A stretch of 64,000 nucleotides of DNA. Source: Blastocatellia bacterium. GTDB taxonomy: Bacteria > Acidobacteriota > Blastocatellia > UBA7656. The stretch is taken from assembly GCA_035607285.1 (NCBI GenBank), contig DATNBZ010000239.1:2194-66193 (forward strand), in the 5' to 3' direction. Below, piece by piece: positions 1,061-19,660 of the stretch. The position numbers and the translations under genes were made by a program. Positions within the stretch are counted from its first letter, which is position 1, and each line of letters begins with the position of its first letter. Below the pieces are notes generated by a model. It did no database searches. It saw only the letters and a list, made by a program, of their open reading frames with translations, and had not been told where the DNA came from.

Positions 1061-1103
1061 TGTCCCCTACTGCACAGAAACCGATCTCGAACAGGCGTAG
1101 CAT
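1061..1103 (+). promoter_or_regulatory. Putative Crp-paralog box plus -10 (class II promoter)
   Basis: TGTCC-cctact-GCACA at 1061-1076; TAGCAT at 1098. Confidence 0.7.
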
Positions 1104-1191
1104 TCGAAGTGTAAGCCGAAGTGAAGCGGAGTCGGGATAGCGCGCTGAGCGCCCGACACGCACGGATGAACTGCACCTGGAGGTCGAAATC

Positions 1192-1341
1192 ATGCTTTGG
1201 ACAATTTTGGTTATTCTGCTGGTCCTGTGGCTGCTGGGAATGCTCGGCGGCGTTGGTGGTTCGTTGATTCATTTGCTGCTGGTTGTTGCAGTGATTGTGC
1301 TGGTCTTCAACCTGATCAGCGGGCGACGGGGCATCGTCTAA
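1192..1341 (+). CDS. lmo0937/DUF5670 family small membrane protein (not in ORF track)
   Basis: GGAGG RBS; MLWTILVILLVLWLLGMLGGVGGSLIHLLLVVAVIVLVFNLISGRRGIV*, 49 aa. Confidence 0.88.
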   Translation: MLWTILVILLVLWLLGMLGGVGGSLIHLLLVVAVIVLVFNLISGRRGIV

Positions 1342-1437
1342 GCGAAAACACAACGCGTCAGATAGCCCAGAGCTGAGTGGCTCGAGAAGTGTTCCCCGCC
1401 TCTTCTCCTGCGTCTGCTGCCGTAATAATCATTCCTG

Positions 1438-1665
1438 GTGGCGCTGGAGTACGAAATGACCGATTCGGATATGGTGGATCTCTATGAAGAGATGCTCTGG
1501 GTAAAGGCGACCAACAGCCGAATCAGACCGATGCTTTATGTCTCATCATCCAGGGACCTCGAGTGCAACGTGCTGATGCTGCTAAATGCGGCTCCTGAGC
1601 TAAGGCTGGCGCGACACGGGCACCTGATCGTAAGCGGACCCAGGCAACAAATCAGGACAATTTAG
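1438..1665 (+). CDS. Hypothetical protein
   Basis: 75-aa ORF; GGAG precedes an internal ATG; no recognisable family. Confidence 0.4.
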   Translation: MALEYEMTDSDMVDLYEEMLWVKATNSRIRPMLYVSSSRDLECNVLMLLNAAPELRLARHGHLIVSGPRQQIRTI

Positions 1666-1768
1666 GTTCCTGATTCGGATTCCTGATCTAAGGGCGCTGC
1701 TCGGTTCTGTTTTGTGGTTGTTCGGACTACCACGCGGCAGCGGCGGTGGTTGATTATCGCCTTAGTAG

Positions 1769-1922
1769 TAGTGGGGTATGAGCGTGTTGCCAGCAAGCAG
1801 TCCTCTGCGTCCCCGGCGTCCGCGGTTTTCCCTGCTCAGTAGCCCGGAATCAACCGCAGAGGACGCCGAGGACGCAGAGGAGAAACGCGAATGTGAGCGA
1901 GCAACACACTATCACCCGACTA
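1769..1922 (+). mobile_element. 154-bp MITE, copy 1
   Basis: Ends TAGTGGGGT...ACCCGACTA, flanked by direct repeat tcgccttagt; near-identical inverted copy at 5859-6011. Confidence 0.8.
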
Positions 1923-1967
1923 TCGCCTTAGTCAGGGCAGTGGAGGCAATCCAAGGGAGGTAGAGAA

Positions 1968-2564
1968 TTGAGTGACTATATAGAAAAACGAGTAGTAGTT
2001 CAGGCTGTCCCGGTTGGGAGAACCCCCGTCGTCGAGACTCGGATTGATTCAGTAGTCGGCGAACGTCGAGGGATGTCAGGAGTCGCAGTCGCCGCTTTGG
2101 TTGTGGCAGCAATCGCTGCCGCTGTCGTAATCACAATGCTGATCTTGAACAGTCAGCAAAAGAGGAGCGATGACCTACTGGCCCAGGAGCGAGCAAGAAC
2201 CGCCGCTGCCCAGCAGGCGCCCGCTCAGCCATCGCCGCAACAACAGCCGCTGATCCTTACGTTGCCCGCATCGCAGCCGGCTACAGTGGCGCCGGTACCG
2301 TCTCCCGTGGTTACTGCTGTTCAACCGCCTCCAAGTTACAAGGACAGCGCGCCTTCGAACGCCGCTCTCGAAATAGACGTGACGTCGCTACTGCAGAACG
2401 ACCCGCAACTGCGCACCTACGCGCTCGACGTGAAGGTCACCGATGGCACCGCAATACTGAGCGGGAACGTGTCAGATGAAGCGCTCAAGCAATTGGCAGG
2501 CAAGCTCGCTGGAACGGTCCGCGGTGTCAGGAGAGTAGTGAACGATATCGCCGTGAGACCTTGA
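1968..2564 (+). CDS. BON domain membrane protein
   Basis: N-terminal TM helix, Pro/Gln linker, C-terminal BON (DVKVTDGTAILSGNV...GVRRVVNDI). Confidence 0.85.
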   Translation: MSDYIEKRVVVQAVPVGRTPVVETRIDSVVGERRGMSGVAVAALVVAAIAAAVVITMLILNSQQKRSDDLLAQERARTAAAQQAPAQPSPQQQPLILTLPASQPATVAPVPSPVVTAVQPPPSYKDSAPSNAALEIDVTSLLQNDPQLRTYALDVKVTDGTAILSGNVSDEALKQLAGKLAGTVRGVRRVVNDIAVRP

Positions 2565-2640
2565 ATCCGTCAGAAGCTGTAACGACTCGACAGCGTGTTG
2601 CGAAGCGCGACGCGCTCAGCCACACAGAAGGGGAACACGT

Positions 2641-3102
2641 ATGGATGCACTGGAGCTATTGAAAGCGGATCATCGGAAAGTTGGAGATCTTTTCGCGCAG
2701 GTCAATGCGACTGAAGACGAAAAGCAACATCAACAGCTTTTCGAGCAGATCAAATGCGAACTCGAGATCCACAGCCACATAGAGGAAACCGTGTTGTATC
2801 CTACCTTTGAGAAATACGGCGAGCTGAAAGCCATAGTCCTTGAAGCCTACGAAGAGCACAAGCAAGTAAAGACACTCATCGACGAGATCACCGCGTTGAG
2901 TGAGGGCAGCGGACGCTTTGATGCAAAGCTCAAAGTCATGGGCAAGAACGTCAGACAGCATGTCAAAGAAGAAGAGGACGGAATGTTCCCCGCCGCGAAA
3001 AAGTTTCTTGATGGAAGGCGGCTCGAACAGCTCGGGCAGGAGTTGGAAGAGGCGAAGAGGCAGTTCGTGACACCGTCCCGTAAACACGCCAGCGCCGGCT
3101 GA
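2641..3102 (+). CDS. Hemerythrin/HHE domain protein
   Basis: MDALELLKADH, HSHIEE, EEH and HVKEEE motifs. Confidence 0.9.
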   Translation: MDALELLKADHRKVGDLFAQVNATEDEKQHQQLFEQIKCELEIHSHIEETVLYPTFEKYGELKAIVLEAYEEHKQVKTLIDEITALSEGSGRFDAKLKVMGKNVRQHVKEEEDGMFPAAKKFLDGRRLEQLGQELEEAKRQFVTPSRKHASAG

Positions 3103-3106
3103 CAGA

Positions 3107-3197
3107 GTCCGACAAGCTGCCGGCTTGTCGGAGGGTCTTCTCGTCGAGCTGGAGATCTTACAACGCGGACCTCGACAAGCTGGCAGCTTGTCGGACT
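3107..3197. repeat. REP-like palindrome pair (gtccgacaagctgcc...cttgtcggac family)
   Basis: Inverted pair; related copy at 55561-55622. Confidence 0.7.
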
Positions 3198-3245
3198 TTT
3201 CTAAAGTCCGAGTGTAGTCGGACGCTATCGATAAAGGAGTTCAAC

Positions 3246-3458
3246 ATGTGGAACAAGGATGAGATCAAAGGCAAAGGTAAACAGATCGAGGGTGCGGTAA
3301 AGGAAAAGGCCGGGCAGTACGTCACCAATCCGGACCTCGAAGCCGCCGGCAAAGCCGAGCGATTTGAAGGAAAGGTCCAGGAGAAGGCAGGCGAGTATCG
3401 CCGTAACGCTGCCGGACTGCTGGAGAAAGTGGTCAAAGTCGCTAACGGTAAGCGTTAG
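3246..3458 (+). CDS. CsbD family stress protein
   Basis: MWNKDEIKGKGKQIEGAVKEKAG...EGKVQEKAG; AAGGAG RBS. Confidence 0.9.
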   Translation: MWNKDEIKGKGKQIEGAVKEKAGQYVTNPDLEAAGKAERFEGKVQEKAGEYRRNAAGLLEKVVKVANGKR

Positions 3459-3565
3459 TTCGGAAGTCATCCGATTGGATAGCTAGCCAGGGGACGGTAA
3501 CGTGAAGCGCGGCGTAACTGTTATGCCGAACGATCCCAAACAGATTTGAAACAGGAGAATAGTAA

Positions 3566-5149
3566 ATGAAGATCAGTAGATTCATTGTCGCGAGCGCGCT
3601 GCTTTTTATGGCCCTCGTTGGTACATCTTTCGCTCAGACTATCGAAGTCACCAACACCTCGCAATGGGTTTCCGCGAGGCGTCAAATCCTTGCAGTCAAA
3701 TATATCGAGGATAAGCAAACGGCGGTCAATATGTCGGGCACATCACTTGTGCCGCGAGCCATGGGGAAGGCTGATGTTGAGTTCAAGCACGGCCGTTCGC
3801 GGATCAAGCTCGAGATGGAGAACCTGGGGCATCCGCAATCGCTGGGCGCTTATTACACCACCTACATTCTGTGGGCAGTGGCTCCGGAAGGACAGGCTGA
3901 GAGCCTGGTGGAATTGCCTATAGCCGGCAAGATCAACCTTGATGCGACGACGAAACTTCAGAACTTCGGTCTGATGATCACCGCCGAGCCTCACGCGAGT
4001 GTGGCGCTGCCGAGTCCGGTGATCGTGGCCGAGAACTCATTGCGCAAAGGGACGGAAGGGAACATCGGAGTCAGTAAAATTGAATACAGCGGCGATTCTG
4101 GAACTCTCTATGTCGTCACGTCGCCGAATGCTCCGGCGTTGAATGCGGACTTCAATACACCGTTGTTGATTCTGGGAGCACGTCGCGCAGTCTGGATTGC
4201 AAAACGAGCGGGCGCCGGCGAGTTTGCCGCTCCGGAGTTGCGATCAGCAGAAGTGAAGCTCGAGGCTTTGGAGCAGAGTTGGCCGGGATCGCGCGGGCAC
4301 GACAGCGAGCGCAAGAATGCGGAGAGACATGGCGGACAAGCTCGCGACGTTATGCGCCTGGGCGAGCACGCTCGAAGCCTGACGGTCGAGCGTCGCATTC
4401 AAGCGAGACTTGCGGAGGAACGACGTGACGCCAGCAACACTATTGCCCAGGCTCAGTCCGATGCCGATCGCGCGCGAACGGATGCTGACCGGGCTACGAT
4501 GGATGCCGATCACGCCAGAATGGAAGCTGAACGCGCACGCAGATCGGAGCGCGATGAAGCGGCAAGGGCGGCAAGTGACGCCGCACTATCACGCGAGCGA
4601 GTAGCGCAGGCACAATCGGAAACCGAGACCGCGAAAGCGAATGAAGCGACCGCATCCAACGAAGCAATGCGGGCGCGAATTCAGGCCCTCGACGCATTGC
4701 GTGAAAGAGACGCCGCGCGAGAAGGGCTCTACGTCTCGCTCTCGGGGATTCTTGAGACCAGGCGCGAGGCTCGCGGGCTGATCGTCAATCTCTCGGATGT
4801 CCTGTTTGATACCGCTCAGTCGACGCTCAAGCCGGGCGCTCGCGAGAAGCTCAGCAAACTGGCCGGCATACTCCTGGCTTATCCGGGTGCGTATCGGATC
4901 GAGATCGAGGGGCACACTGATTCGGTGGGGTCCGATGACAGCAACCTGCGGCTGTCACAGGGACGTGCTGACTCGGTACACGACTATCTGTTACACAGCG
5001 GCCTTAAGCCGGATCGCATTATGAGCGCTCGCGGTTTGGGCGAGACAACTCCAGTCGCGAGCAACGACACCGCGGCCGGAAGGCAAGTCAATCGGCGGGT
5101 TGAAATTATCATCGCCGATACCGTCACTAAGGCTCAGGCAGGTAATTGA
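3566..5149 (+). CDS. OmpA family protein with coiled-coil stalk
   Basis: Signal peptide, Ala/Arg coiled coil, OmpA C-domain (IEGHTDS...NLRLSQGRA...NRRVEI). Confidence 0.9.
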   Translation: MKISRFIVASALLFMALVGTSFAQTIEVTNTSQWVSARRQILAVKYIEDKQTAVNMSGTSLVPRAMGKADVEFKHGRSRIKLEMENLGHPQSLGAYYTTYILWAVAPEGQAESLVELPIAGKINLDATTKLQNFGLMITAEPHASVALPSPVIVAENSLRKGTEGNIGVSKIEYSGDSGTLYVVTSPNAPALNADFNTPLLILGARRAVWIAKRAGAGEFAAPELRSAEVKLEALEQSWPGSRGHDSERKNAERHGGQARDVMRLGEHARSLTVERRIQARLAEERRDASNTIAQAQSDADRARTDADRATMDADHARMEAERARRSERDEAARAASDAALSRERVAQAQSETETAKANEATASNEAMRARIQALDALRERDAAREGLYVSLSGILETRREARGLIVNLSDVLFDTAQSTLKPGAREKLSKLAGILLAYPGAYRIEIEGHTDSVGSDDSNLRLSQGRADSVHDYLLHSGLKPDRIMSARGLGETTPVASNDTAAGRQVNRRVEIIIADTVTKAQAGN

Positions 5150-5205
5150 TGAAGATCTCACACGAATGCCGGAGCGAGTTAAACCGGGCATGTGTTTGAA
5201 ATCAA

Positions 5206-5307
5206 TTTGGAGTGCGGCGCGGTCTGTGCGTTCGCGCCGCTTTTGGCTGATTAGTTTGAGAACAAAGGGAAAGCGGCGCGAACGCACAGACCGCGCCGCA
5301 CTCCAAA
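5206..5307. repeat. REP-like palindrome pair (ttggagtgcggcgc...gcgccgcactccaa)
   Basis: Long near-perfect inverted repeat in intergenic space. Confidence 0.75.
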
Positions 5308-5332
5308 TAAGCTGCATCCTGGAGGTCAAGCT

Positions 5333-5803
5333 ATGGGACGCAAGAAAAAGGCTGGGATAGGTCTAATACTCGAGCGGTTTTCACTCAAAGCTACGAAGGC
5401 AACCGGAACCTCCGGGGCGTTCGTCATTGCATTGGCGGTGCTTATCGTCTGGGCAATCTCAGGGCCGGTCTTCCATTTTTCTGATACCTGGCAATTGGTG
5501 ATCAACACCGGAACGACCATCGTAACCTTTCTGATGGTGTTTCTGATTCAACGAACACAGAACAAGGATGCGCTGGCGATACATCTGAAACTCAACGAAA
5601 TTGTCGCTGCCGTAGAGGGCGCCAGTAACCGGCTGATCGATGTCGAGGACCTCACCGAAGCCGAGATTGAGGTGCTTCACAAGCATTACCAAAAGCTGGT
5701 AGCCCTGGCAAAACATGACGCCAAACTTACCGAAACTCATTCCATCGAGGAAGCCGAGGATCGTCACAAGACCAAGCACGCAAAGCGCAAGCGCGCGGCA
5801 TGA
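5333..5803 (+). CDS. Low-affinity iron permease (Fet4-like) family protein
   Basis: FSDTWQLVINTGTTIVTFLMVFLIQ...KLNE signature. Confidence 0.9.
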   Translation: MGRKKKAGIGLILERFSLKATKATGTSGAFVIALAVLIVWAISGPVFHFSDTWQLVINTGTTIVTFLMVFLIQRTQNKDALAIHLKLNEIVAAVEGASNRLIDVEDLTEAEIEVLHKHYQKLVALAKHDAKLTETHSIEEAEDRHKTKHAKRKRAA

Positions 5804-5858
5804 TCGCAGGAACACCGGTTTGGTCATGTAAGGGCCTCCGTGGCCGCCCCTCTTCGGG

Positions 5859-6011
5859 TAGTGGGGTGATAGTGTTGCTCGCACATTCGCGTTTCTCCTC
5901 GGCGTCCTCGGCGTCCTCTGCGGTTGATTCCGAGCCACTGAGCAGGAAAAACCGCGGAGGACGCAGGGGACGCAGAGGACTGCTTGCTGGCAACACGCTA
6001 ATACCCCACTA
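5859..6011 (-). mobile_element. 153-bp MITE, copy 2, inserted inside a REP doublet
   Basis: Ends TAGTGGGGT...ACCCCACTA, flanked by direct repeat cccctcttcgg. Confidence 0.8.
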
Positions 6012-6116
6012 CCCCTCTTCGGCACGCGAGGTTTGAGCAACGAGGGGCGGCCACGGAGGCCCGCCCTTACATGACCCTCACTTTCGCCGCTACACTCCAA
6101 TAGCCGCGAGGTTTGG

Positions 6117-7439
6117 GTGAAGCCGAAACAACACTCTTATTCTGAAGAGAACCTCGACGCGCTCGAGCGCGTTACCTTTGACTATTTCCTGAAGGAAGCG
6201 AATCCGGAAAATGGTTTGGTTCCCGACAGCACTCGCCAGGGATCGCCGTGCAGCATTGCCGCAACCGGATTCGGGCTCGCGAGCTATCCGGTTGGCGTCG
6301 AGCGTGGATTCATCACGCGCGATGAAGCGATCACACGAACCCTTCTCACATTGCGCTTCTTTTGGAATAGCGCACAGGGTCCCGAACCGGACGTCACAGG
6401 CTACAAGGGTTTCTATTACCACTTCCTCGACATGAAGAGCGGACGCCGCGCCTGGGATTGCGAACTGTCGACCATCGATTCGACGTTCTTGATCGCGGGC
6501 GCACTGACCGCCGCGCAGTATTTCAATCGCGACAATCAAGATGAATTAGAAATTCGCACGGTAGCCGACGCGATCTATCGCCGGTGCGACTGGCAATGGG
6601 CGCAGAATCTGGGAGCTACAGTCACGCACGGCTGGAGACCTGAAAGCGGGTTCATAAAGTATCGTTGGGAAGGTTACAACGAGGCGCTGATCCTTTACGT
6701 TCTTGGGCTTGGATCGCCCACTCACGCCTTGCCCGAGGAGAGTTACAAGGCCTGGGCAAGCACGTATGAATGGAGGAGCCTTTACGGGCGCGAGTTTCTC
6801 TACGCCGGTCCGCTCTTCATCCATCAGCTCTCGCACATGTGGATCGACTTTCGGGGGATTCAGGACGACTACATGCGCGGCAAGGGAATCGACTATTTCG
6901 AGAACAGCCGCCGCGCAACTTACCTTCAGCAGCAATACGCGATTTGCAATCCGCGAGGCTTTCGAGGTTATGGTGAATACATATGGGGTCTCACGGCCAG
7001 CGATGGCCCGGGACCGGCGCGCAAGAAGATCGGAGGCAAGCTGCGGCAATTCTTCGACTATGAAGCGCGCGGCATTCCAGACGGTCCGGATGACGGCACG
7101 CTGGCGCCGTGGGCGGTGATCGCTTCACTTCCGTTTGCGCCGGAGATTGTGTTGCCGTCGATGCAGTATTTCGACGAGGCGTATCCTGAGATGACCAGCC
7201 ACTACGGATTCAAGTGCAGTTTCAATCCGACGTTTTCGACAGGTTCAGGGAATGACAAAGATTCAAGCAAGGAGTGGATCTCAAAGGGATACTACGGTCT
7301 CGATCAAGGCCCGATAGTTTTGATGATTGAGAACTATCGTACAGGCTTTTTGTGGCGGCTGATGCGCGGTTGTTCTTATATAGTTGAAGGGCTTCGCCGC
7401 GCAGGTTTTGAGGGCGGCTGGCTGCAGGAGCTCGAGTAG
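6117..7439 (+). CDS. Glucoamylase-like (GH144-like) glycoside hydrolase
   Basis: GFYYHFLD, ELSTIDS, WEGYNE, PLFIHQ, WGLTASDGP and GLDQG motifs. Confidence 0.85.
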   Translation: MKPKQHSYSEENLDALERVTFDYFLKEANPENGLVPDSTRQGSPCSIAATGFGLASYPVGVERGFITRDEAITRTLLTLRFFWNSAQGPEPDVTGYKGFYYHFLDMKSGRRAWDCELSTIDSTFLIAGALTAAQYFNRDNQDELEIRTVADAIYRRCDWQWAQNLGATVTHGWRPESGFIKYRWEGYNEALILYVLGLGSPTHALPEESYKAWASTYEWRSLYGREFLYAGPLFIHQLSHMWIDFRGIQDDYMRGKGIDYFENSRRATYLQQQYAICNPRGFRGYGEYIWGLTASDGPGPARKKIGGKLRQFFDYEARGIPDGPDDGTLAPWAVIASLPFAPEIVLPSMQYFDEAYPEMTSHYGFKCSFNPTFSTGSGNDKDSSKEWISKGYYGLDQGPIVLMIENYRTGFLWRLMRGCSYIVEGLRRAGFEGGWLQELE

Positions 7440-7440
7440 G

Positions 7441-8206: not shown

Positions 8207-9010
8207 GTGATGAGCTCAAGCATGACGGAAAGGAATCGTTCAACAAATCGGGTGCTGGTAAGTTTCATTCTGCTGCCGGTGTTGTTTTTGACTGTAGCGC
8301 TGCTGGGAGGTCTGCGAGTAAGCGCTGACGACCACGCGTTCATCTTCATCCCGCCGCCGCTGGTCACGCTTCTGCTCGCGGTACTGTTAGCCTTGCTCTT
8401 CGTGCGCGGCAACCTCATCGAGTTGCCGCGATGGGTGGCGAGCACTAATCCGCCAGTGACGAACGTTTCGAATGTCTGGATGCTGCTGACCCTCTTTTTC
8501 GCATCGGCGCAGGTGTTCAACTCGGTCCTGCCTGAACGCGGACTGCTTCACTGGTTGTTTTCTTTCTTTTTTCTGTGGACGCTCTGGAACAATTTGTTCT
8601 CGTGGTTTGACGCGCGCAGACTATTGCGCAGCCTTGTGGTTCTCTTCGGGACTGCGTTCGTGCTCAAACACCTGCTGTTGGCGGGTCTCTATGGTCAGGA
8701 AAGGGGGTGGCTGCAGCGAGTCGCGGGAGCGCTGTTGCAAGGAGTGTCGCTCGGCACACTCGACGCGCCGTCGTTTGCGCCGGCTTCGGGTTACATCTCT
8801 TTCTTCACGCTTGCGCTGTTCGTCACCGGATTGCTTTTGATTCCATTCGTGCAAAACAGCGAGGCTCATGAACCAGGGCATTCAGTTATCGAGAATCAAA
8901 AAAAGCTGCCTGCTTCCGATCGCGTAGTCGCGCACGAAGCGATCCTGGAGAATTCCAGTGCGCCCGTTAGAGAATTAGATGGGATACCAAAAGAAGGCCT
9001 GGAAGAGTAA
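8207..9010 (+). CDS. Multi-pass membrane protein, hypothetical
   Basis: About 6 hydrophobic segments. Confidence 0.7.
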   Translation: MMSSSMTERNRSTNRVLVSFILLPVLFLTVALLGGLRVSADDHAFIFIPPPLVTLLLAVLLALLFVRGNLIELPRWVASTNPPVTNVSNVWMLLTLFFASAQVFNSVLPERGLLHWLFSFFFLWTLWNNLFSWFDARRLLRSLVVLFGTAFVLKHLLLAGLYGQERGWLQRVAGALLQGVSLGTLDAPSFAPASGYISFFTLALFVTGLLLIPFVQNSEAHEPGHSVIENQKKLPASDRVVAHEAILENSSAPVRELDGIPKEGLEE

Positions 9011-9104: not shown

Positions 9105-9147
9105 ATCGTACAGACCAAATTCAGTGAAGTCTGTTCAATACTAGACG
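9105..9147 (-). promoter_or_regulatory. Putative Crp-paralog box plus -10, leftward
   Basis: TGTTC-aatact-AGACG at 9132-9147; minus-strand TACGAT at 9110-9105. Confidence 0.5.
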
Positions 9148-9192
9148 GAACCAAGAACAGTTCTGATCATAGCGGCCAATTATTTTCGAGAT

Positions 9193-9235
9193 TGTCCCAT
9201 ACGGTACAGAAAACGAAATCGAATGGGCGTAGCAT
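9193..9235 (+). promoter_or_regulatory. Putative Crp-paralog box plus -10
   Basis: TGTCC-catacg-GTACA at 9193-9208; TAGCAT at 9230. Confidence 0.7.
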
Positions 9236-9277
9236 TCGGAGTGTAAACGCGAGCGGGGAGAGAGCCGCGAACTCGGG

Positions 9278-9350
9278 TTGATTCACCTGTTGCTTGTTAT
9301 TCCGGTCATCGTGTTGATCTTCAACACGCTGAGCGGCGCCGAAGTCGTTA
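9278..9350 (+). pseudogene. Remnant of a DUF5670/lmo0937 family gene
   Basis: Translates LIHLLLVIPVIVLIFNTLSG, matching the 3' half of 1192-1341; 5' half and RBS are missing. Confidence 0.65.
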
Positions 9351-9368
9351 AGCGTCACGCAGCATGCG

Positions 9369-9383
9369 CGGCACGTATATTGC
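9369..9383 (+). promoter_or_regulatory. Putative sigma-54 -24/-12 promoter
   Basis: CGGCACGTATATTGC fits GGCAC-N5-TTGC. Confidence 0.5.
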
Positions 9384-9567
9384 CCTTTTGAGGTCTACGA
9401 CTGCTTTGAAGCTTGTAGGCGGCCAGTTTCGGGACGTTTGGCGGATTAAGTGATCTATTCCAATGCAATCACAATTCGGCCGGTCCTTTGTATGGCGGTA
9501 TCGGAAACCGTGAAATAACCGATACGCCCTGATTTGATTTTCTGAATTCCCAAAGGAGGTTTAGGCC

Positions 9568-11578: not shown

Positions 11579-11621
11579 TGTCCTTTATTGCACTGAAAGC
11601 CATGCGCGCTGAGCCTATCAT
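11579..11621 (+). promoter_or_regulatory. Putative Crp-paralog box plus -10
   Basis: TGTCC-tttatt-GCACT at 11579-11594; TATCAT at 11616. Confidence 0.65.
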
Positions 11622-11647: not shown

Positions 11648-11842
11648 GTGTCGAGGTCTGGAGATGCTGAGATGATGGAAGTTACCGGATTAGGGATGGG
11701 GCTTGTAATGACCGGGGTTGCGGTGGCAATGGGCGGGCTCATGCTCGAAGCTACGCTCCTGGTGCTCCGCAGAAGAATTCGAGTGACGACGCTCATCGCA
11801 ACACTTGAGCCTGCCACCGTCCAGTTGATTACTGGCGCGTGA
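11648..11842 (+). CDS. Small membrane hypothetical protein
   Basis: Hydrophobic ORF directly downstream of the predicted promoter; start likely at an internal ATG. Confidence 0.5.
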   Translation: MSRSGDAEMMEVTGLGMGLVMTGVAVAMGGLMLEATLLVLRRRIRVTTLIATLEPATVQLITGA

Positions 11843-11921
11843 GAGTCAGGTTAGAGCGCGCTCGACGAGCGTCCGAGGCCTCACAACAAACCTGATAATA
11901 AGAAGGTTCCTGAAGGGAGAC

Positions 11922-12218
11922 ATGAAAATGAAGCCAAAGATAACGCAGGTGCTGCTAGCAACAGCGGCAGTGATCATGTTCGCGTTGGCGGCGCCGATGG
12001 CGATTGCCCAGCAGGACAAACCTGGTAAGCCTTCGGCTACGGGCCAAATGAAGGAAAGCGGCAGGGAAGCAGGCAGAGCAGGAAAGAGCCTCGGCCACAA
12101 CTTCAAGCACGGCCGCCTTCGCCGCGGAGGCAAGCGCTTCGGCAAACATATTGGTTACGCCGGCAGGCACGTGGGACGTGGGACAAAGCACGCGTATAAG
12201 ACAGCGGTAAAGCCATAA
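11922..12218 (+). CDS. Small secreted basic protein
   Basis: GGGAGA RBS, signal peptide, Gly/Lys/Arg-rich repeats. Confidence 0.7.
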   Translation: MKMKPKITQVLLATAAVIMFALAAPMAIAQQDKPGKPSATGQMKESGREAGRAGKSLGHNFKHGRLRRGGKRFGKHIGYAGRHVGRGTKHAYKTAVKP

Positions 12219-12463
12219 TCAAACTGTGTTTTTCGGGGAGGCGCCGTACTCACCAGTGGACCACGGCGCTTCTCGACGCCGGCTATCAACTCGCCCTGGC
12301 TTATCAAACTCACCAATCGTCAGGGTCGCACCGTTGCGCTCCTGAACGAAGAAAGGAGAGCACTTCATGAACACGTCCCCACCAACGGAAGTGAGATGAT
12401 CAGGGCGATCCGAATCCGCCGGCCGTGCAACCGCAAGCCAGGCAGGTGTTCACAAGGAGAGTT

Positions 12464-12991
12464 ATGAGTGTAGAAGTCGACAAGAGCAATGTGTTGTTAG
12501 ACGAAGAGCGCAGACTCGCTTCGCATCAGGAGGTCAAGGCCTCGATCGATGACGATGTGAACGCGCGTATCAAGCAGGAGTCAGCACGTGTCAAGCCGGA
12601 GGAATCGGCCGAAGTGGCCGGCGTTGCCAGCGCGCTAAAACGCAAATCGGTGCACGAAGCCGTGAGTACCGAACGAGAGCTCGGGCGCGGCAGGGCCGCG
12701 GCGCGGATTTCACAGGTGGTCGATTATGTCTTTTACATAATTTATGGTTTGATCGCACTGGAGTTCCTGCTGGGCTTGATGGGTGCGCGGTCCGGCAATG
12801 GCTTCGTTCAGTTCATCGGAGCGCTAACTCGACCGCTGCTTGCGCCGTTCGAGCGCATTGTGGGAACTCCGTCGTCCGGAGCGTTTCAGGTTCGGATCTC
12901 CTACTTGTTCGCGCTTATTGTGTACGTTCTGATTCATCTCGCAATCAATGGCGCGTTTCGCTTAGTCGCGCACCGCAAGGTAACAGTGTAA
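12464..12991 (+). CDS. YggT family membrane protein
   Basis: AAGGAG RBS; C-terminal LMGA...FVQFIGALTRPLLAPF. Confidence 0.8.
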   Translation: MSVEVDKSNVLLDEERRLASHQEVKASIDDDVNARIKQESARVKPEESAEVAGVASALKRKSVHEAVSTERELGRGRAAARISQVVDYVFYIIYGLIALEFLLGLMGARSGNGFVQFIGALTRPLLAPFERIVGTPSSGAFQVRISYLFALIVYVLIHLAINGAFRLVAHRKVTV

Positions 12992-13036
12992 GAGATGATG
13001 CGATCGGCGTTCGCCGGCTGCATACAGGGAGAAACC

Positions 13037-13660
13037 ATGCGATACCGATCAAGATCGATTATTTCTGCAGCACTCACGGTGCTGCTTATCGCGGGCGCGG
13101 CGTATTATTTCTACGGCTACCGCAATCGAGACATCTCGTCGGACTTCAACGCGGCAAAGGAGTACACCGAGGACGCGGCGACAACCAGCGCCGTCAAGAG
13201 CGCCCTCGCTTTGAATAAGAAGAGCTCCTCTTTCGACATTCACGTTAACTCGATCGATAGTCCCGGCAAGAGTGGCAATGATGTGACTCTAACCGGGCAC
13301 GTGCCTTCCGAGGAGGACAAACGCGAAGTGGAAGCGATCGCGCGCGGCACAAAAGGCGTCGACAACGTTGTGAACAATCTCGAGGTCGATCCGAAGACCC
13401 AATCCGCCAATGCCGAAAAGCAATTCGTCCCCGACCTCGAAATAAAGGCAGCGGTGCTTCAGTCCATCCTCAACAACCCGGCCCTGAAGTCTCAGCAGAT
13501 CAAGGTTGATGTTAACAACGGTGAAGTAAAGCTAAGCGGCAGTGTTGGAAGCTCAGCACAGAAGACTGCAGCCGAAGCGGCTGCTCGAGGGATCACGAAT
13601 GTGCGTGACGTCGATTCCAATGCGTTGGCCGTGACAACCGCCGGAGCGGGACAACCATGA
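13037..13660 (+). CDS. Dual BON domain (OsmY-like) protein
   Basis: DAATTSAVKSAL...VTLTGHV...GVDNVVNNL, followed by a second BON. Confidence 0.88.
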   Translation: MRYRSRSIISAALTVLLIAGAAYYFYGYRNRDISSDFNAAKEYTEDAATTSAVKSALALNKKSSSFDIHVNSIDSPGKSGNDVTLTGHVPSEEDKREVEAIARGTKGVDNVVNNLEVDPKTQSANAEKQFVPDLEIKAAVLQSILNNPALKSQQIKVDVNNGEVKLSGSVGSSAQKTAAEAAARGITNVRDVDSNALAVTTAGAGQP

Positions 13661-13833
13661 AGGTGCGTCTGATCAAGCCGGGTATCTCGGCGGCACCCGA
13701 GAAACAAGAAGACTCGCCGGCCAAGGTTCCAATCATCGACACCATTCAATCATGGGTGCGCGAGTTTCGATCCAGGAAAACCGATAAATCACTTCTGGAC
13801 TTCAAGCGAATAAGGAATCTGGGGAAAAGATAA
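13657..13833 (+). CDS. Small hypothetical protein (not in ORF track)
   Basis: ATGA overlap with the BON gene; 58 aa MKVRLIKPG...IQSWVREFRSRK. Confidence 0.6.
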   Translation: MKVRLIKPGISAAPEKQEDSPAKVPIIDTIQSWVREFRSRKTDKSLLDFKRIRNLGKR

Positions 13834-13850
13834 AAAGACTGTATAGACTC

Positions 13851-14146
13851 GTGTGACTAAAAGTGGGACCCCGGGAGCGAACCGCCCGCGACTCTTCGCG
13901 GAGGAAGTGTCCTGAGAATTCCCTGGAACCCCGTAGGGGTAAAATGTCTATAGTTGGCGAGTTCCCTATGTTGCCAACCCCGCAGGGGTGAAATGTACCT
14001 GCGCTCAACTGTATGCCGCTCCTAACGGAGCCAGGAAATCCAGGTCGGCAGTCCGTAACTATAAACATCGCACCCCTACGGGGTTGCCGGGTCGGAACGC
14101 TCGATTCACTGCTCTGAGTTGCTGGTGACCTAAGTCCCACCCAAGT
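13851..14146 (+). repeat. About 295-bp composite REP/MITE-like element, copy 1
   Basis: Highly similar to 54265-54558; contains accccgtaggggt palindromes and cacccctacgggg. Confidence 0.85.
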
Positions 14147-14246
14147 CCGACTGATATGTGAACTCCTAATCACACTCGCCGTAGACTGTCCGGTCTGCGC
14201 TTGCTTGCGGGTGTGCGTCACCTTTGCGTTTGATTCGGGGGATTGC

Positions 14247-14537
14247 TCATTCACCGATTCCGTTCCTGGAAAGCAGTTCTTTGTTGATCGCCTGAATTAG
14301 ATCGAAATAAGGAAGCTTGCGGAAGTTGTGATCGAAGAGATAACGAACGTTATTCCAGAGCGCTTCCCGGGTTGTGTAGCCCGCAGGCAGTACGCCGTCG
14401 CGGGGATCATCAAATCCCAACTCCATGCGGAGCGGGACCAGCAGCTCTCTCAGCAACGCGTCTTCATCATCGGTCGCGGCTCTTGCTCTGACTTGCTGGC
14501 ATAATGATGCGAAGCCCTCTCGGTTAATATTCGTCAC
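14247..14537 (-). CDS. Hypothetical protein
   Basis: 96 aa with AGGAG RBS upstream of GTG. Confidence 0.6.
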   Translation of the reverse strand: MTNINREGFASLCQQVRARAATDDEDALLRELLVPLRMELGFDDPRDGVLPAGYTTREALWNNVRYLFDHNFRKLPYFDLIQAINKELLSRNGIGE

Positions 14538-14672
14538 CGCGTTCTCCTAACATCCGCCTCATACCTCTACAACATGGTTCGACATCGGTTCGCTGCTGAC
14601 AAGAGTAACGTCAGGGATATTGGATTGTTCGGTTCCACACGAGAAACCGCCTCGAGGGAGAGGGCAAAGGCT

Positions 14673-14858
14673 TCAGGTGCTATCTGAATGTGAGTGACGA
14701 ACGATTCGAAGTTGAATCGGGGCATTGATGATATTCAACTCGTCTCTCAGTACTTGAGAAGCCTTGAGTTGGTCATCGCCAACTTCAAACAGGGGCCGCC
14801 ACTCTGAGGACCTGAGAGGATTGTTGACTTCGAAGCGCCAGTGCGTCTGCTGTTCCAT
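14673..14858 (-). CDS. Small hypothetical protein
   Basis: 61 aa, directly downstream of the predicted leftward Crp-type promoter. Confidence 0.5.
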   Translation of the reverse strand: MEQQTHWRFEVNNPLRSSEWRPLFEVGDDQLKASQVLRDELNIINAPIQLRIVRHSHSDST

Positions 14859-14879: not shown

Positions 14880-15018
14880 ATGGTACAGAGTCAGTTCTAA
14901 CGAGTCTGTTCAAAATGATACAGAAGTGAAAATATTTCTGCGGAAACTGATCGTCCTCTCTCCTGAACGTGAACCGGTCTCCTATTGAACAGAAAGTTGT
15001 ACGGCGTGGTGATAAGTT
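14880..15018. promoter_or_regulatory. Back-to-back Crp-paralog class II promoters
   Basis: TGTTC-aaaatg-ATACA at 14907-14922 with minus-strand TACCAT at 14885-14880; GGTCT-cctatt-GAACA at 14976-14991 with TAAGTT at 15013. Confidence 0.6.
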
Positions 15019-15057: not shown

Positions 15058-15198
15058 ATGAGTATTGAAGAGAGAATCGGTCAGGCTGTTACGACGCTGA
15101 ATGAAGAGGAATCCAAGGAGTTCGACTGGCAATCCAACAGAGACGACGAGAATCCGAAAGACCTGCCCTGGCCGGAAGAAAATGAATCGAAGGAGTAG
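15058..15198 (+). CDS. Small acidic protein (not in ORF track)
   Basis: AGGAGG RBS; MSIEERIGQAVTTLNEEESKEFDWQSNRDDENPKDLPWPEENESKE*, 46 aa. Confidence 0.65.
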   Translation: MSIEERIGQAVTTLNEEESKEFDWQSNRDDENPKDLPWPEENESKE

Positions 15199-15479
15199 CT
15201 CACCTACCCGAGACATTTGGCAACGTAATTGCTCTGATGTTTACGGCGTCGGCTGAGAGACAAAGAAAAATTCGACATTTGTTGGGCGCCTGCGTCTTTG
15301 AACGAAGTACGCGATTCACAACAGTGTTTTGATTTGCGCCGGTTGTGTTTGACTTTGCTGCGTTCAGGCGTCGACGAAAGTACATGCGTTCTGACGTTGT
15401 TCGACAGGCGAATGCTTGCCGTTGAGTGTCGTCTGGTCGATCGCGGGGATATCACTGAAAACAAATTCAGAGGAGCAAT

Positions 15480-15833
15480 ATGGATCAAATGAACAGTAGC
15501 AATAGTCTCACAGGTAATGAGGATGGTTACGGGTCACGAGGCGGATCACAGCCTGCGGGTGTATCACTCGATACAATCAAGGAAGCTGTTGCCGACAAGT
15601 TACACGCCGCCGCGGGAGCAATTCAACAGAAGGCCGGACAGAAGCAGCTAGACCAGGGCGGCTACATCGGGCAGGCCGCGGGATGGCTCGACAATGCAGC
15701 AGAGTACGTTCGCGACGTAGACCCGCAAAGGGTTAAGTCGGATCTTCAAAGACAAGTGCGAAGCAATCCCGGGCGCAGCCTGCTCATAGCCGGAGCTGCC
15801 GGGCTTTTTCTTGGCATTCTACTGCGGAGGTGA
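15480..15833 (+). CDS. DUF883/ElaB-like tail-anchored protein
   Basis: C-terminal VRSNPGRSLLIAGAAGLFLGILLRR. Confidence 0.8.
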   Translation: MDQMNSSNSLTGNEDGYGSRGGSQPAGVSLDTIKEAVADKLHAAAGAIQQKAGQKQLDQGGYIGQAAGWLDNAAEYVRDVDPQRVKSDLQRQVRSNPGRSLLIAGAAGLFLGILLRR

Positions 15834-16258
15834 CCGGTATGGAGACGCGAAGAGGATTCGAAAGAAGAATCGAGGCGAGTATTCCGCGAGAATCGTTCGG
15901 CGAGTTGCTAAGTCAATTGGCGACCAACTCCGCGGCCCTGGTCCGTGATGAGATCCAACTGGCACGGCAGGAGCTGAGCGATAAACTCAGCGAATTTCGC
16001 TCTGGCATCCTGGTCCTAGCAGTCGGAGCGATAATCGCGTTCGTCGCCACCCTGGCGCTAACGGCCGCGGCAATCATCGGGCTGGCTCATTATGTCGGTC
16101 CTGGTTATTCGGCTCTCATCATTGGCGCGGCGCTCGCGATTGCCGGGGGCATAACGGCTTCCGCGGGAATGGTCCAGGTAAAGCGCATCAACCTTGCGCC
16201 AAAACAAACGATCGAGACACTCGAGGAGGATAAGGAATGGCTGAAAGAACTAACCTAG
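15830..16258 (+). CDS. Holin-X/YhjD-like phage holin family protein
   Basis: SFGELL...LVRDEIQLARQE, two TMs, PKQTIETLEED. Confidence 0.85.
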   Translation: MTGMETRRGFERRIEASIPRESFGELLSQLATNSAALVRDEIQLARQELSDKLSEFRSGILVLAVGAIIAFVATLALTAAAIIGLAHYVGPGYSALIIGAALAIAGGITASAGMVQVKRINLAPKQTIETLEEDKEWLKELT

Positions 16259-16785
16259 CAACTCAACCTGGCTTTCAGGACACGACAGTGGATCGAAGCG
16301 CATTCGCGATTCGTCAGGACATAGCTGCCAAGCGAGAGTCTATTTCCGAGACGGTAGACAAGCTTGGCGATCGCCTGCAGCAAACTTTTGACTGGCACGA
16401 ATACGTCGCCGCATATCCGGTTGTCGCCCTGGGGTTGGCTGCTGGAGCCGGTTTCCTGATAGCAGGCGCCTTCAAGCGAAAGCCAACGCCACAAGAGCGC
16501 ATTCACGAGGCAGTTGCTGAACTCACTGAGGACCTGGCTGACCGCGTGGGTGGCGTCATGGCGGGAGTGATACAGAAAAAGATGTTCTCGGGCGGTGCAG
16601 TGAAAGCGGCAGCGACAACGATACTCGCAAAGGTGGCGGTAGATTTTCTAAAGAGCCGGCCAGGTGGCGCGATGGCCGGAGACAACTCGAGACCGGGACA
16701 GCCACAATCCCGGTACAGCGCGCCGCGCAATTCCGATATGAATGTTCAACCGGGCAGCTTCTCTACGACCGGTAGCAGGGGCTGA
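16237..16785 (+). CDS. DUF3618-like protein
   Basis: IRQDIAAKRESISETVDKL followed by P..ALGLAAGAGFL. Confidence 0.75.
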   Translation: MAERTNLATQPGFQDTTVDRSAFAIRQDIAAKRESISETVDKLGDRLQQTFDWHEYVAAYPVVALGLAAGAGFLIAGAFKRKPTPQERIHEAVAELTEDLADRVGGVMAGVIQKKMFSGGAVKAAATTILAKVAVDFLKSRPGGAMAGDNSRPGQPQSRYSAPRNSDMNVQPGSFSTTGSRG

Positions 16786-16811
16786 CATTAATCTATCAAA
16801 GGGGAAAATAC

Positions 16812-17213
16812 ATGGAATCGAACAAGAACATAGCAGAGCAGGCCAAACCAGGCGGTACTCCTAATAAGCCCGTTTCCAGCGGCGCGTCGGGTCCGGCGAG
16901 CAGCGCGACCCAACGCGCGCGCGAGGTCGCCTCCGATGTCGGCAGCGGCGTCCAGAACGCTTACGACCAGACGGTGAAAGCTGTAAGCGACGCTTACGAC
17001 AAGACCAGCGAAGCAGTAGCGAACACCTACGATCAAACAATGACCTACGGACGCGAGAATCCCGGCAAGCTGACGATGATCGCGTTTGGCGCGGGCATCG
17101 GAATAGGCATACTTCTGGCTTCCGGGCTTAGCGGCGGTCGAAGCCGAAACACCCGTTTCGCAGAACCGATCGTGTCGGCGCTTTCGCAAGTCGCTCTCGA
17201 GTTGTTTAGATAA
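16812..17213 (+). CDS. DUF883-like membrane-anchored protein
   Basis: 11-aa AYDQT repeats followed by RENPG..MIAFGAGIGIGILL. Confidence 0.75.
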   Translation: MESNKNIAEQAKPGGTPNKPVSSGASGPASSATQRAREVASDVGSGVQNAYDQTVKAVSDAYDKTSEAVANTYDQTMTYGRENPGKLTMIAFGAGIGIGILLASGLSGGRSRNTRFAEPIVSALSQVALELFR

Positions 17214-17242
17214 CGAAGAATCGGCTTATTAAGACTGACAAC

Positions 17243-17281
17243 CAAGCCACAGGGGCTCTGCCTCTGTGGCTTGCTCGATTT
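17243..17281 (+). terminator. Hairpin terminator
   Basis: caagccacaggggc-tct-gcctctgtggcttg stem after the operon. Confidence 0.55.
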
Positions 17282-17423
17282 GGCACTTGATCTCTTCGAT
17301 TGCGCGATCGCGTATTGTCTCGCCTTTATCCTGCTTCAACTGGCTGTGCGAATATCACCTTCGCATGTTCGTTTTCTCGAGGGGGATGACGTTGATAGTG
17401 GTTCAGTCTGTGGCGCGGACCCC

Positions 17424-17508
17424 AATTAACCGCTGATTTTGCGCCGCCTTCGGTACGCTGATTCACGCAGATCAGCGAAACGCAGTCAGCGAAAATCAGC
17501 GGTTAATT
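17424..17508. repeat. Short-period hairpin element
   Basis: aattaaccgctgatttt...aaaatcagcggttaatt terminal inverted repeat. Confidence 0.7.
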
Positions 17509-17580
17509 CTTTCTTGGTGCTTGAAAGAGTCCGGCCTGAACCACTATTACCGATGATTTCAGCCCTCTAAATTGGATAAT

Positions 17581-17623
17581 TGTCCAATATTGCACAGCGC
17601 CGTCTTCATCGGGAGTTTATACT
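17581..17623 (+). promoter_or_regulatory. Putative Crp-paralog box plus -10 upstream of crp paralog 2
   Basis: TGTCC-aatatt-GCACA at 17581-17596; TATACT at 17618. Confidence 0.72.
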
Positions 17624-17680
17624 AGGGTAGTCGTTAGCATTAGCAGTAGAAAAGCCAATCGGCGAACGGACGGAAGAGGA

Positions 17681-18361
17681 ATGATTCAGCAGACTCCGCA
17701 CGCAGATCAATTCAAAGAACAGATGCAAGGGTCCTTGCTCAGTGAAACGAAGAACTCGAGCCCCATCAAGATCGGCAAGCACAATCATGTTTACACGGTT
17801 GGCGACGAACGCGAGACGGTGTACTTCATCGAAAAGGGTCAGATCAAGCTGGTAATGGTTTCCGAAGAAGGCAAGGAATGCATGCTTGCGATCCACGGCG
17901 CGGGAGATGTTTTCGGCGAGCTATGCCTGTCCGGGCTTGGGGCCCGGCTCGAAACCGCGACCGCAATGGAAGACTCATTCCTGAAAGAGATTCCGTGCGG
18001 CAAGTTTCTCGGGCGCCTGGCTACAGACAATCTTCTCGAAGGCTTCATCAAGTATCTGGCCGTTCGGATTGCGGACCAGCAACAGGTCATCGCCAACCTC
18101 GTCACGGTTGATAGTGAGCAACGCCTGGGGAAGACTCTGTTGCAAATCGCCAAAAAGCTCGGCAAGAAAGACCCGCGGAGCATTCGCATCGAGGTCAAGA
18201 TTTCTCACGAAGAATTAGCCGCTATGGTAGGCACTACGCGGCCGCGGATCAGCGTATTCATGCAGCGGTTCCGCAACCTCGACCTCATCGAATACAACAG
18301 TGAGCACCATCTGATCATCAAGGAACACAAGCTCACTGCTTACCTGTCTTCAATCCTCTAG
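17681..18361 (+). CDS. Crp/Fnr family transcriptional regulator (paralog 2)
   Basis: 226 aa, colinear with paralog 1; FGELCL and GTTRPRIS. Confidence 0.93.
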   Translation: MIQQTPHADQFKEQMQGSLLSETKNSSPIKIGKHNHVYTVGDERETVYFIEKGQIKLVMVSEEGKECMLAIHGAGDVFGELCLSGLGARLETATAMEDSFLKEIPCGKFLGRLATDNLLEGFIKYLAVRIADQQQVIANLVTVDSEQRLGKTLLQIAKKLGKKDPRSIRIEVKISHEELAAMVGTTRPRISVFMQRFRNLDLIEYNSEHHLIIKEHKLTAYLSSIL

Positions 18362-18463
18362 CTAATGTGTTAAATTACTGGTCCTGAATTTTCAGGGCCG
18401 ACTTCAGAGGGGAAACGACCGGCGCCTCTCACCAATCTCGAAAGGTTTACGACAAGTTCTGCT

Positions 18464-19600
18464 ATGACGAATACACAGGAGATTCTCTCGCACGATGCAC
18501 AACAATTTTCGGAGCCGGCGCGATCCGACCGGAGCTTGAAGTTCGCAGGCAGCAGCGATTTTCAAATCGAGCTTCGACGCCGGATCGATGAGTTCTTCCG
18601 AAGGACCGGACGGCGGCAACGCGATTGCCCGCAGATGTACGTGAAGACCGCGATACTCGTCGTACTCTTCGCAGCGTCTTACGTAATGCTGGTGTTCGTC
18701 GCTCAAGCGTGGTGGCAGGCGCTGCCGCTGGCGATACTGCTTGGATTAATCACCGGAGCAATCGGCTTCAATGTTCAGCACGATGGCAGCCATCACGCGT
18801 ATTCGAACTACGATTGGGTCAACAAAGTGATGGCAATGTCGCTGGATGTGATCGGCGGCAGTTCATACCATTGGTATTGGAAACACATCGTCTACCATCA
18901 CACCTATGTCAACATCACAGGCCACGATACAGACGTCGACATCGGCGGTCTCGGCCGCTTGACACCGCATCACCGGCGGCGATGGTTTTACCGTTTCCAG
19001 CAATTCTACTTCTGGCCGCTGTACGGGTTCATGGCCATCAACTGGCACCTGGTGGGTGATTTCCGAGACGTGATACCGGGACGAATTGGAGAACACAAGC
19101 TTCCACGCCCGAAAGGCTGGGAGTTGGTGGGATTCATCGCCGGCAAAGTGAGTTTCTTCGCACTGGCATTCGGAATCCCGTTTCTCCTGCACCCGATCTG
19201 GGTTGTTGTGTTGTTCTACGGCTTGGCGGCCATGGTGCTCGGCCTCGTGCTGAGCGTTGTATTTCAATTGGCGCATTGCGTGGAGCAAGCCGAGTTTCCG
19301 TTGCCCGGAAAAGACACCGGTAAAATCGAAAACTCGTGGGCAATTCACCAGGTTGAAACCACTGTCGACTTCGCGCGCCGCAGTCGCGTGGCGGCCTGGC
19401 TCCTGGGCGGGTTGAACTTTCAGATCGAACACCATCTGTTTCCCCGAATCTGTCATATTAATTACCCCGCAATCTCGAAAGTGGTCGAGCAGACCTGTCA
19501 GGAGTTCGGCGTCAAGTACAGCGAACATAAGTCCTTCTGGTCAGGGGTTGCGTCGCACTTCCGCTGGTTGCGGCAGATGGGAATGCCGGACACGCCTTGA
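18464..19600 (+). CDS. Acyl-CoA (linoleoyl-CoA-type) fatty acid desaturase
   Basis: His boxes HDGSH, HIVYHH and QIEHH. Confidence 0.92.
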   Translation: MTNTQEILSHDAQQFSEPARSDRSLKFAGSSDFQIELRRRIDEFFRRTGRRQRDCPQMYVKTAILVVLFAASYVMLVFVAQAWWQALPLAILLGLITGAIGFNVQHDGSHHAYSNYDWVNKVMAMSLDVIGGSSYHWYWKHIVYHHTYVNITGHDTDVDIGGLGRLTPHHRRRWFYRFQQFYFWPLYGFMAINWHLVGDFRDVIPGRIGEHKLPRPKGWELVGFIAGKVSFFALAFGIPFLLHPIWVVVLFYGLAAMVLGLVLSVVFQLAHCVEQAEFPLPGKDTGKIENSWAIHQVETTVDFARRSRVAAWLLGGLNFQIEHHLFPRICHINYPAISKVVEQTCQEFGVKYSEHKSFWSGVASHFRWLRQMGMPDTP

Positions 19601-19617
19601 GAGCCTAATCTCGAGAC

Positions 19618-19660
19618 TGTTCAATACTGGACGGAAGAGGATTCAGTAAAGGCGTATACT
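19618..19660 (+). promoter_or_regulatory. Putative Crp-paralog box plus -10
   Basis: TGTTC-aatact-GGACG at 19618-19633; TATACT at 19655. Confidence 0.7.

Follow-up and report, generated by a model that had tools for sequence, protein, structure and literature searches.

Two genes for Crp/Fnr-family regulators, here named crp1 and crp2, lie in a 20-kb island of a Blastocatellia bacterium (Acidobacteriota; GenBank assembly GCA_035607285.1, contig DATNBZ010000239.1), in which a 16-bp palindromic box recurs at one fixed distance from a -10-like hexamer. The question raised by this locus is whether the two proteins read the box and, if so, what they do there. The window, i.e. the whole stretch of 64,000 nucleotides that was analyzed (C88:2194-66193 in our contig numbering), belongs to an assembly of 318 contigs and 7.4 Mb, and positions without a contig number refer to the window. 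A preliminary description of this DNA had proposed that the two local Crp paralogs activate a stress island through a half-site different from that of CRP; at the level of sequence the spacing of the boxes, their co-occurrence with the regulator across genomes and the recognition helix of the proteins support this proposal. We consider it likely that crp1, crp2 or both occupy the box and activate transcription from it.

The eight boxes were found at 1061, 9132, 9193, 11579, 14907, 14976, 17581 and 19618, all with the letters and at the coordinates given in the preliminary description, and the TAnnnT hexamer named there stands exactly 21 nt from the box in every case (8/8). Six of the eight promoters are directed along the + strand, those at 9132 and 14907 along the - strand.

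Box 1, 1061..1076, + strand: TGTCCCCTACTGCACA; -10 TAGCAT at 1098-1103; predicted start near 1110.
Box 2, 9132..9147, - strand: CGTCTAGTATTGAACA, read on the - strand; -10 TACGAT at 9105-9110.
Box 3, 9193..9208, + strand: TGTCCCATACGGTACA; -10 TAGCAT at 9230-9235; paralog of the box 1 promoter.
Box 4, 11579..11594, + strand: TGTCCTTTATTGCACT; -10 TATCAT at 11616-11621.
Box 5, 14907..14922, - strand: TGTATCATTTTGAACA, read on the - strand; -10 TACCAT at 14880-14885.
Box 6, 14976..14991, + strand: GGTCTCCTATTGAACA; -10 TAAGTT at 15013-15018.
Box 7, 17581..17596, + strand: TGTCCAATATTGCACA; -10 TATACT at 17618-17623; crp2 promoter, conserved in relatives.
Box 8, 19618..19633, + strand: TGTTCAATACTGGACG; -10 TATACT at 19655-19660; orthologous promoters in relatives.

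The consensus box is TGTYCAATATTGRACA, followed by an invariant G. Thirteen sites of the genome give the form tGTyc-aATAtT-GrACA, with G as the next base in 13/13, and among them the promoter-proximal half of the palindrome is the better conserved one; at position 12 of the box, 9 of these 13 sites of the source genome (G000) have a purine. The initial wording of the motif, TGTYC-N6-GNAC[AG], was too narrow, as it fits only four of the eight boxes. The promoters at 1061 and 9193 are visibly paralogous over about 90 nt, in keeping with the single duplication from which they had been derived, and the flanks of the remaining six boxes are unrelated to one another. The duplicate, promoter 3 (9172-9262), is followed by a DUF5670 gene cut to a 37-amino acid remnant (9278-9391). 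Neither regex nor matrix scans found further boxes in the window past 19618, which agrees with the earlier remark that the box had not been noticed in the housekeeping half.

The geometry of these promoters is that of class II activation, as had been proposed. The distance of 21 nt between the end of the box and the -10 hexamer corresponds to 22 bp up to the second -10 position, and this is the spacing which passages of PMC10187061 describe as exclusive to class II CRP promoters. The box overlaps the -35 region at a fixed distance from the -10, as does the activator site of a class II promoter, and with a start 7 nt past the hexamer its centre would be near -41.5. A match of 9/12 to a sigma-70 consensus is reached by only one of the eight promoters, and seven of the eight have no sigma-70-like -35. 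A sigma-70 scan of the first 20 kb, used only with regard to this absence of the -35, gave 7 promoter-like sites vs 9.0 expected.

Genome-wide, the regex TGTYC-N6-GNAC[AG] alone is not enriched (154 strand matches vs about 242 expected from base composition). At a spacing of 21 nt, 9 of these 154 matches have the TAnnnT hexamer downstream and 5 have it upstream; every other spacing between 0 and 44 gives 0-4 occurrences. A matrix built from the eight seed boxes gave 17 strand matches with a score of at least 18, of which 13 have TAnnnT at 21. After the matrix had been retrained on the 13 sites with this spacing, 18 strand matches reached a score of at least 20, with the hexamer at 21 in 13 of them and at 22 in one; most of the remaining high-scoring matches are the opposite strands of palindromic sites. 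The preliminary description had named enrichment of TAnnnT 21 nt from the box as a check of its claim, and box and spacing together are indeed sharply enriched. About 15 good sites are present in the 7.4-Mb genome and nine of them are gathered in the one 20-kb island with crp1 and crp2, the ninth island site (C88:2092, - strand) being situated about 100 nt to the left of the window. Fourteen of 16 sites lie outside open reading frames (ORFs) of at least 150 amino acids, although such ORFs make up 83% of the genome, and one of the two sites within long ORFs, that on C33, owes its position to a spurious upstream TTG start. The sites outside the island are the following.

C130:10410, C19:21433, C82:15479 and C227:30404: sites with a spacing of 21.
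C33:31959: site with a spacing of 22.
C213:14039: weaker site.

The two regulators encoded in the island are 69% identical to each other.

crp1, 153..833, - strand: Crp/Fnr-family regulator, recognition helix GTTRPRVSVFMQRF.
crp2, 17681..18361, + strand: Crp/Fnr-family regulator, recognition helix GTTRPRISVFMQRF.

As judged from their sequences both belong to the Crp/Fnr superfamily: PF00027 (cNMP_binding) and PF13545 (HTH_Crp_2) score above their cut-offs in crp1, in crp2 and in a third paralog of the genome (on C270). Among solved structures the best matches are E. coli CRP/CAP and M. tuberculosis Crp (E about 4e-18). In the recognition helix G-T-T-R-P-R-I-S-V takes the place of the G-C-S-R-E-T-V-G-R of CRP, according to an alignment made with M. 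tuberculosis Crp and extended to E. coli CRP by the shared frame. Within CRP, R180 reads the G of TGT, and base pairs four and five of the half-site are contacted by E181 and R185. In the proteins described here R180 is kept, E181 is replaced by P and R185 by V, L or M. The box, for its part, retains TGT and changes GA to YC; we infer that the change of the helix agrees with the change of the box, and the half-site different from that of CRP, postulated from the boxes, appears to have its counterpart in the protein. Of 113 full-length homologs, translated from the loci taken together, 108 have the helix TTRPR(I/V)S. In the alignment of the nucleotide-binding part the phosphate-binding Arg is kept, but there are differences at the next residue, which is Leu, and at the adenine-contacting positions, which are Gln.

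Assignment to CRP, FNR or NtcA has been attempted and rejected in each case. No NCBIfam equivalog fits, the best being PtrA, with 65 bits vs a cut-off of 300. CRP proper (PRK11753/NF008732) reaches 61 bits vs a cut-off of 266, and the helix R-P-R-I-S-V and boxes of the type TGTYC-N6-GRACA are not those of CRP, whose R-E-x-x-x-R helix reads TGTGA-N6-TCACA. FNR is characterized by an N-terminal Cys cluster, an E-x-x-S-R helix and the site TTGAT-N4-ATCAA; its model NF008365 gives 56-58 bits vs a cut-off of 228, the first 60 residues of the proteins contain no Cys, and both helix and box differ. NtcA (TIGR03697) scores 58-60 bits vs a cut-off of 245 and only some of the boxes carry GTA or TAC. The NCBIfam and PDB searches revealed no nearer named relative than generic Crp, NtcA and PtrA, and the ESM Atlas matches bear generic names only. 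The DNA-binding half is matched by 3588 metagenome clusters at E ≤1e-5; among the 120 metagenome matches listed only generic Crp/Fnr names occur.

The source genome encodes four Crp-family proteins: crp1, crp2, the C270 paralog and a protein on C130. The C270 paralog (L118, C270:129-803, - strand) is 52% identical to crp2 and has the helix TTRPWISRLLHKF, with TTRPWISR; no recognisable box was found upstream of its gene. The protein encoded at C130:36141-36338 is unrelated to crp1 and crp2 and carries the only canonical RETV helix of the genome. Eighteen perfect, non-repetitive TGTGA-N6-TCACA palindromes occur outside the window (e.g. C25:48442 and C300:23070), whereas base composition would predict about 3.5 times fewer, and the C130 protein would be their natural reader. 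A second, classical Crp regulon probably coexists in this genome.

The relatives set comprised 41 genomes including the source genome, and the Crp type of the island was called at E ≤1e-90. It is present in 19 of the 41 genomes, and three more (G022, G030 and G032) contain weak or fragmentary matches only. The pattern TGTN4TANTGNACNG-N20-TANNNT, with 13 specified bases, has 130 matches in the 19 carrier genomes, 18 of which contain at least one, vs only 2 in the 19 genomes without the Crp type (one each in G008 and G024); G030 has three matches, G022 and G032 none. As controls, the pattern with the -10 moved by 6 nt left 7 matches across all 41 genomes, of which two or more are the same promoters with a second TAnnnT, and the pattern read backwards gave one. 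A phylum sample of 150 further genomes, evenly drawn and each at least 90% complete, contains the Crp type at E ≤1e-60 in G033 only (1/150), and the 149 genomes without it hold 2 pattern matches in total. The plain box, with at most one mismatch, has 36 strand matches in G013, which encodes seven paralogs, vs 0 in G008, 3 in G024, 3 in G019 and 4 in G033. The box-plus-spacing pattern tracks the local Crp type across genomes. Many orthologous promoters can be recognised from one genome to another by their spacers. In the loci oriented along the + strand, the only ones usable here, a box with a TATACT-like -10 stands about 100 nt upstream of the crp2 orthologs, and it is only with the box that the sequences before these genes become alignable. 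The Crp type itself has a patchy distribution, being present in 18 of 24 genomes of the family to which the window belongs vs a single one among 150 genomes sampled elsewhere in the phylum.

The association is not confined to the family. When named genome contigs were scanned with crp2, 80 loci were obtained, the closest of which are titled Blastocatellia or Acidobacteriota. At the DNA level the best match comes from a soil metagenome, and soil is the most likely habitat of the source organism. The taxa of the distant loci are those of the record titles, with binning as in the records. Loci with homologs of 68-75% identity are titled Binatia, Deltaproteobacteria, Thermodesulfobacteriota, Verrucomicrobia, Limnocylindrales and others. 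At least one box (score ≥16) was detected in 51 of 63 distant loci; these 63 loci hold 86 distinct boxes, of which 49 have TAnnnT at 21 or 22, and 2 boxes when read backwards as a control. Among the genes behind the distant boxes are those for DUF5670 proteins, a fatty-acid desaturase (preceded by a box in locus L068), CsbD, a histidine kinase and the crp proteins themselves. The patchy presence within the phylum, together with copies of about 70% identity accompanied by the same box in metagenome-assembled genomes titled as other phyla, suggests that the regulator has spread horizontally together with its promoters.

The following genes stand behind the boxes of the island.

Behind box 1, 1192..7439, + strand: DUF5670 small membrane protein (1192-1341), BON (1968-2564), hemerythrin (2641-3102), OmpA-like protein (3566-5149), low-affinity iron permease (5333-5803) and glycoamylase (6117-7439).
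Behind box 3, 9278..11385, + strand: truncated DUF5670-like remnant (9278-9391) and PG_binding (peptidoglycan-binding) protein (9568-11385).
Behind box 4, 11648..13660, + strand: 64-amino acid membrane protein, 98-amino acid basic protein, YGGT (12425-12991) and BON (12995-13660).
Behind box 5, 13802..14858, - strand: ORFs of 61, 96 and 150 amino acids without family match.
Behind box 6, 15058..17213, + strand: 46-amino acid acidic protein, 117-amino acid tail-anchored protein, Holin-X family protein (15830-16258), DUF3618 (16237-16785) and 133-amino acid tail-anchored protein without family match (16812-17213).
Behind box 7, + strand: crp2 (17681..18361), and the desaturase by possible read-through.
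Fatty-acid desaturase, 18464..19600, + strand: without a box of its own in this genome.
Behind box 8, 19687..20474, + strand: 76-amino acid ORF and CarD-like protein (19914-20474), with overlapping stop and start.

The small membrane proteins and the YGGT/BON cluster, assigned to the regulon in the preliminary description, are indeed situated behind boxes 1, 4 and 6, and crp2 and the CarD-like gene, likewise named there, are preceded by boxes 7 and 8. Boxes outside the island precede genes for a Transgly_assoc (YeaQ-type) protein, a B12-binding radical-SAM protein and several family-less small ORFs; another one precedes a 64-amino acid ORF followed by a receiver-only response regulator. The interval downstream of crp2 (18362-18463) contains a hairpin, GGTCCTGAATTTTCAGGGCC, and no box, and relatives have a correctly spaced box there. 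The ORF at 8207-9010 encodes a membrane protein of 267 amino acids.

Public RNA adds little to this picture. Related sequence was present in only two metatranscriptome runs, in the form of assembled contigs of relatives 88-95% identical to the window; the libraries may contain DNA, and such contigs cannot show starts, strand or level, nor do uncovered parts carry any meaning. One relative's contig begins at 1118, 8 nt past the predicted start of promoter 1, which is weak evidence. The deepest contig (depth 408) covers 16813-17137 within the gene of the 133-amino acid tail-anchored protein and comes from a library labelled as an ice metagenome. In one contig of a relative position 1250 is joined to 9278, which suggests that the 8-kb block between the duplicate promoters is absent in that relative.

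Taken together, the data are best read as a new subfamily of Crp/Fnr proteins, with its own putative helix, box and stress-type regulon, and with the known class II design. A dimer of crp1 and/or crp2, with the helix TTRPR(I/V)S, would bind the box TGTYCAATATTGRACA(G), whose centre precedes the predicted start by about 41.5 nt, and from this position would recruit RNA polymerase or activate it, as class II activators do. The fixed distance, the missing -35 and the palindrome with its better conserved proximal half are all signs of a dimeric activator in contact with the polymerase, as is the case for CRP, FNR and NtcA at class II promoters. The predicted effect of the dimer is positive autoregulation of crp2 together with activation of about 14 other promoters, mostly of small membrane or hydrophilic stress-type proteins; the putative targets include DUF5670, BON, hemerythrin, YGGT, Transgly_assoc, Holin-X/DUF3618, the tail-anchored proteins and the CarD-like protein, and the desaturase would be co-transcribed with crp2.

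Several observations weigh against activation of this regulon by the two proteins. G033, a genome 99% complete, encodes two homologs with the same helix (L120 and L122); it has no strict pattern match and holds only two near-consensus boxes. G008, without the Crp type, has one good, correctly spaced box. The relatives are not independent of one another, so that co-occurrence counts overstate the number of independent events. A high-scoring box at C76:1625 lies inside an ORF of 239 amino acids and has no -10. The promoter at 9132, on the - strand, has no convincing gene ahead of it, and its transcript would be antisense to the ORF at 8207-9010. The desaturase, which the preliminary description had included in the regulon, lacks the box that relatives carry just after crp2; its membership would hold only through read-through from crp2. 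One contig of a relative in an RNA library has its beginning at 19586, already upstream of box 8, and transcription at this box therefore need not start only at the predicted site. Finally, no class II promoter of the box type has been seen in front of crp1; it may be speculated that crp1, having no box promoter, is the point at which the signal enters.

The same architecture has to be weighed against other explanations. The crp proteins could act as repressors, the box occluding the -35 of constitutive promoters that are de-repressed when the protein is released; a site overlapping the -35 region can block RNA polymerase, and MrpC, with a similar motif, both activates and represses and autoregulates negatively, according to passages of PMC8844925 and PMC4320627. 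Repression, however, needs no single fixed distance, whereas the spacing here is 21 (rarely 22) in the source genome and in the relatives alike. The promoters moreover lack a -35 that the polymerase could use unaided, and the best conserved positions are the promoter-proximal half-site and the G that follows it, so that we regard repression as unlikely. A slightly smaller chance is given to a different reader, be it another dimeric regulator or an alternative sigma factor recognising -35 TTGRAC(A) and -10 (G)CGTAnnnT. The proximal half of the box does hold TTGAAC or TTGGAC, GCG or CTG stands before many of the -10s, and G008, with its well-spaced box and no Crp type, and G033, with the Crp type and almost no boxes, would suit such a reader. 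Against it speak the conserved distal half TGTYC and the palindromic site, as expected for a dimer, and the distance of 22 nt from TTGRAC to the -10, which exceeds the spacer lengths of sigma-70 and ECF-type (extracytoplasmic function) promoters. The distant loci had furthermore been chosen by Crp alone, yet 51 of 63 have the box, and no other DNA-binding regulator is common to these loci; within the island the other regulator candidates are a receiver-only response regulator and the CarD-like protein.

That the boxes are functionless, being chance matches or relics of one duplicated segment, is an explanation to which we give practically no credence, even though the regex alone is not enriched (154 vs about 242 expected) and boxes 1 and 3 are duplicates. 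It is ruled out by the spacing enrichment, the intergenic location, the conserved orthologous promoters and the co-occurrence with the regulator across genomes and phyla, and the flanks of the other six boxes are mutually unrelated.

Activation by crp1 and/or crp2 through the box can be extended to a broader and rather doubtful conjecture. The Crp with the TTRPRIS helix and the box TGTCCAATATTGGACA might be the master activator of a general stress/dormancy regulon in soil bacteria, passing horizontally, together with the promoters under its control, as one island among phyla (Acidobacteriota, lineages of the Binatia type and others) and filling the role of RpoS, SigB or EcfG, two or more paralogs of identical specificity feeding in different signals. 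Acidobacteria and Binatia-type bacteria are abundant in soil and hard to grow, and we know of no described regulator of stress or dormancy responses in these groups. What the locus offers is a regulator with a sharply defined 16-bp site of fixed geometry and a short list of targets, conserved across many uncultured lineages, and the regulon can be predicted in any metagenome from the box and the geometry. It is also a clear case in which substitutions in the recognition helix of a Crp-type protein (E to P, R to V/L/M) accompany a changed half-site.

A full-text search of the accessible literature found the box (TGTCCAATATTGGACA, TGTTCAATATTGAACA, TGTCC-N6-GGACA or TGTTC-N6-GAACA) in no publication. 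The main text of the Crp/Fnr surveys PMC3590769 and PMC8510549 is without TGTC, TGTT, GACA and Acidobacteria, and their supplements might list such motifs. Among known systems the closest case by motif is MrpC of Myxococcus xanthus. Its motif from chromatin immunoprecipitation with sequencing (ChIP-seq) is, in passages of PMC4320627, the imperfect palindrome TGTYN8RAC with 1608 putative, variably placed sites; according to parts of PMC8844925 MrpC autoregulates, controls a programme of starvation and dormancy, and is without a known ligand. The consensus box fits TGTYN8RAC at its outer positions; unlike the MrpC motif so described, it combines strong conservation of the core AATATT with a fixed class II position.

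NtcA, the global nitrogen regulator of the Crp/Fnr family in cyanobacteria, comes closest in promoter architecture. NtcA promoters have a palindrome near -41.5, a TAN3T -10 about 22 nt downstream and no -35, and NtcA carries a non-acidic residue at the position of E181 in CRP. The fold is the same (PDB 2xgx, 3la2 and 8h3v, E 1e-12 to 1e-14). The NtcA site, however, is GTA-N8-TAC, whereas TGTYC-N6-GRACA is found here with the helix TTRPRIS, and the NtcA regulon serves nitrogen assimilation, in contrast to the stress-type small proteins of the regulon described here. E. coli CRP/CAP and M. tuberculosis Crp share with crp1 and crp2 the two-domain architecture of cNMP_binding and HTH_Crp_2 and a 16-bp palindrome that starts with TGT and ends with ACA, and CRP has the same class II spacing in the passages of PMC10187061 cited above. 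The difference lies in the half-site, TGTGA vs TGTYC, and in the helix, R-E-T-V-G-R vs R-P-R-I-S-V. No known principle is overturned by the regulator and box described here.

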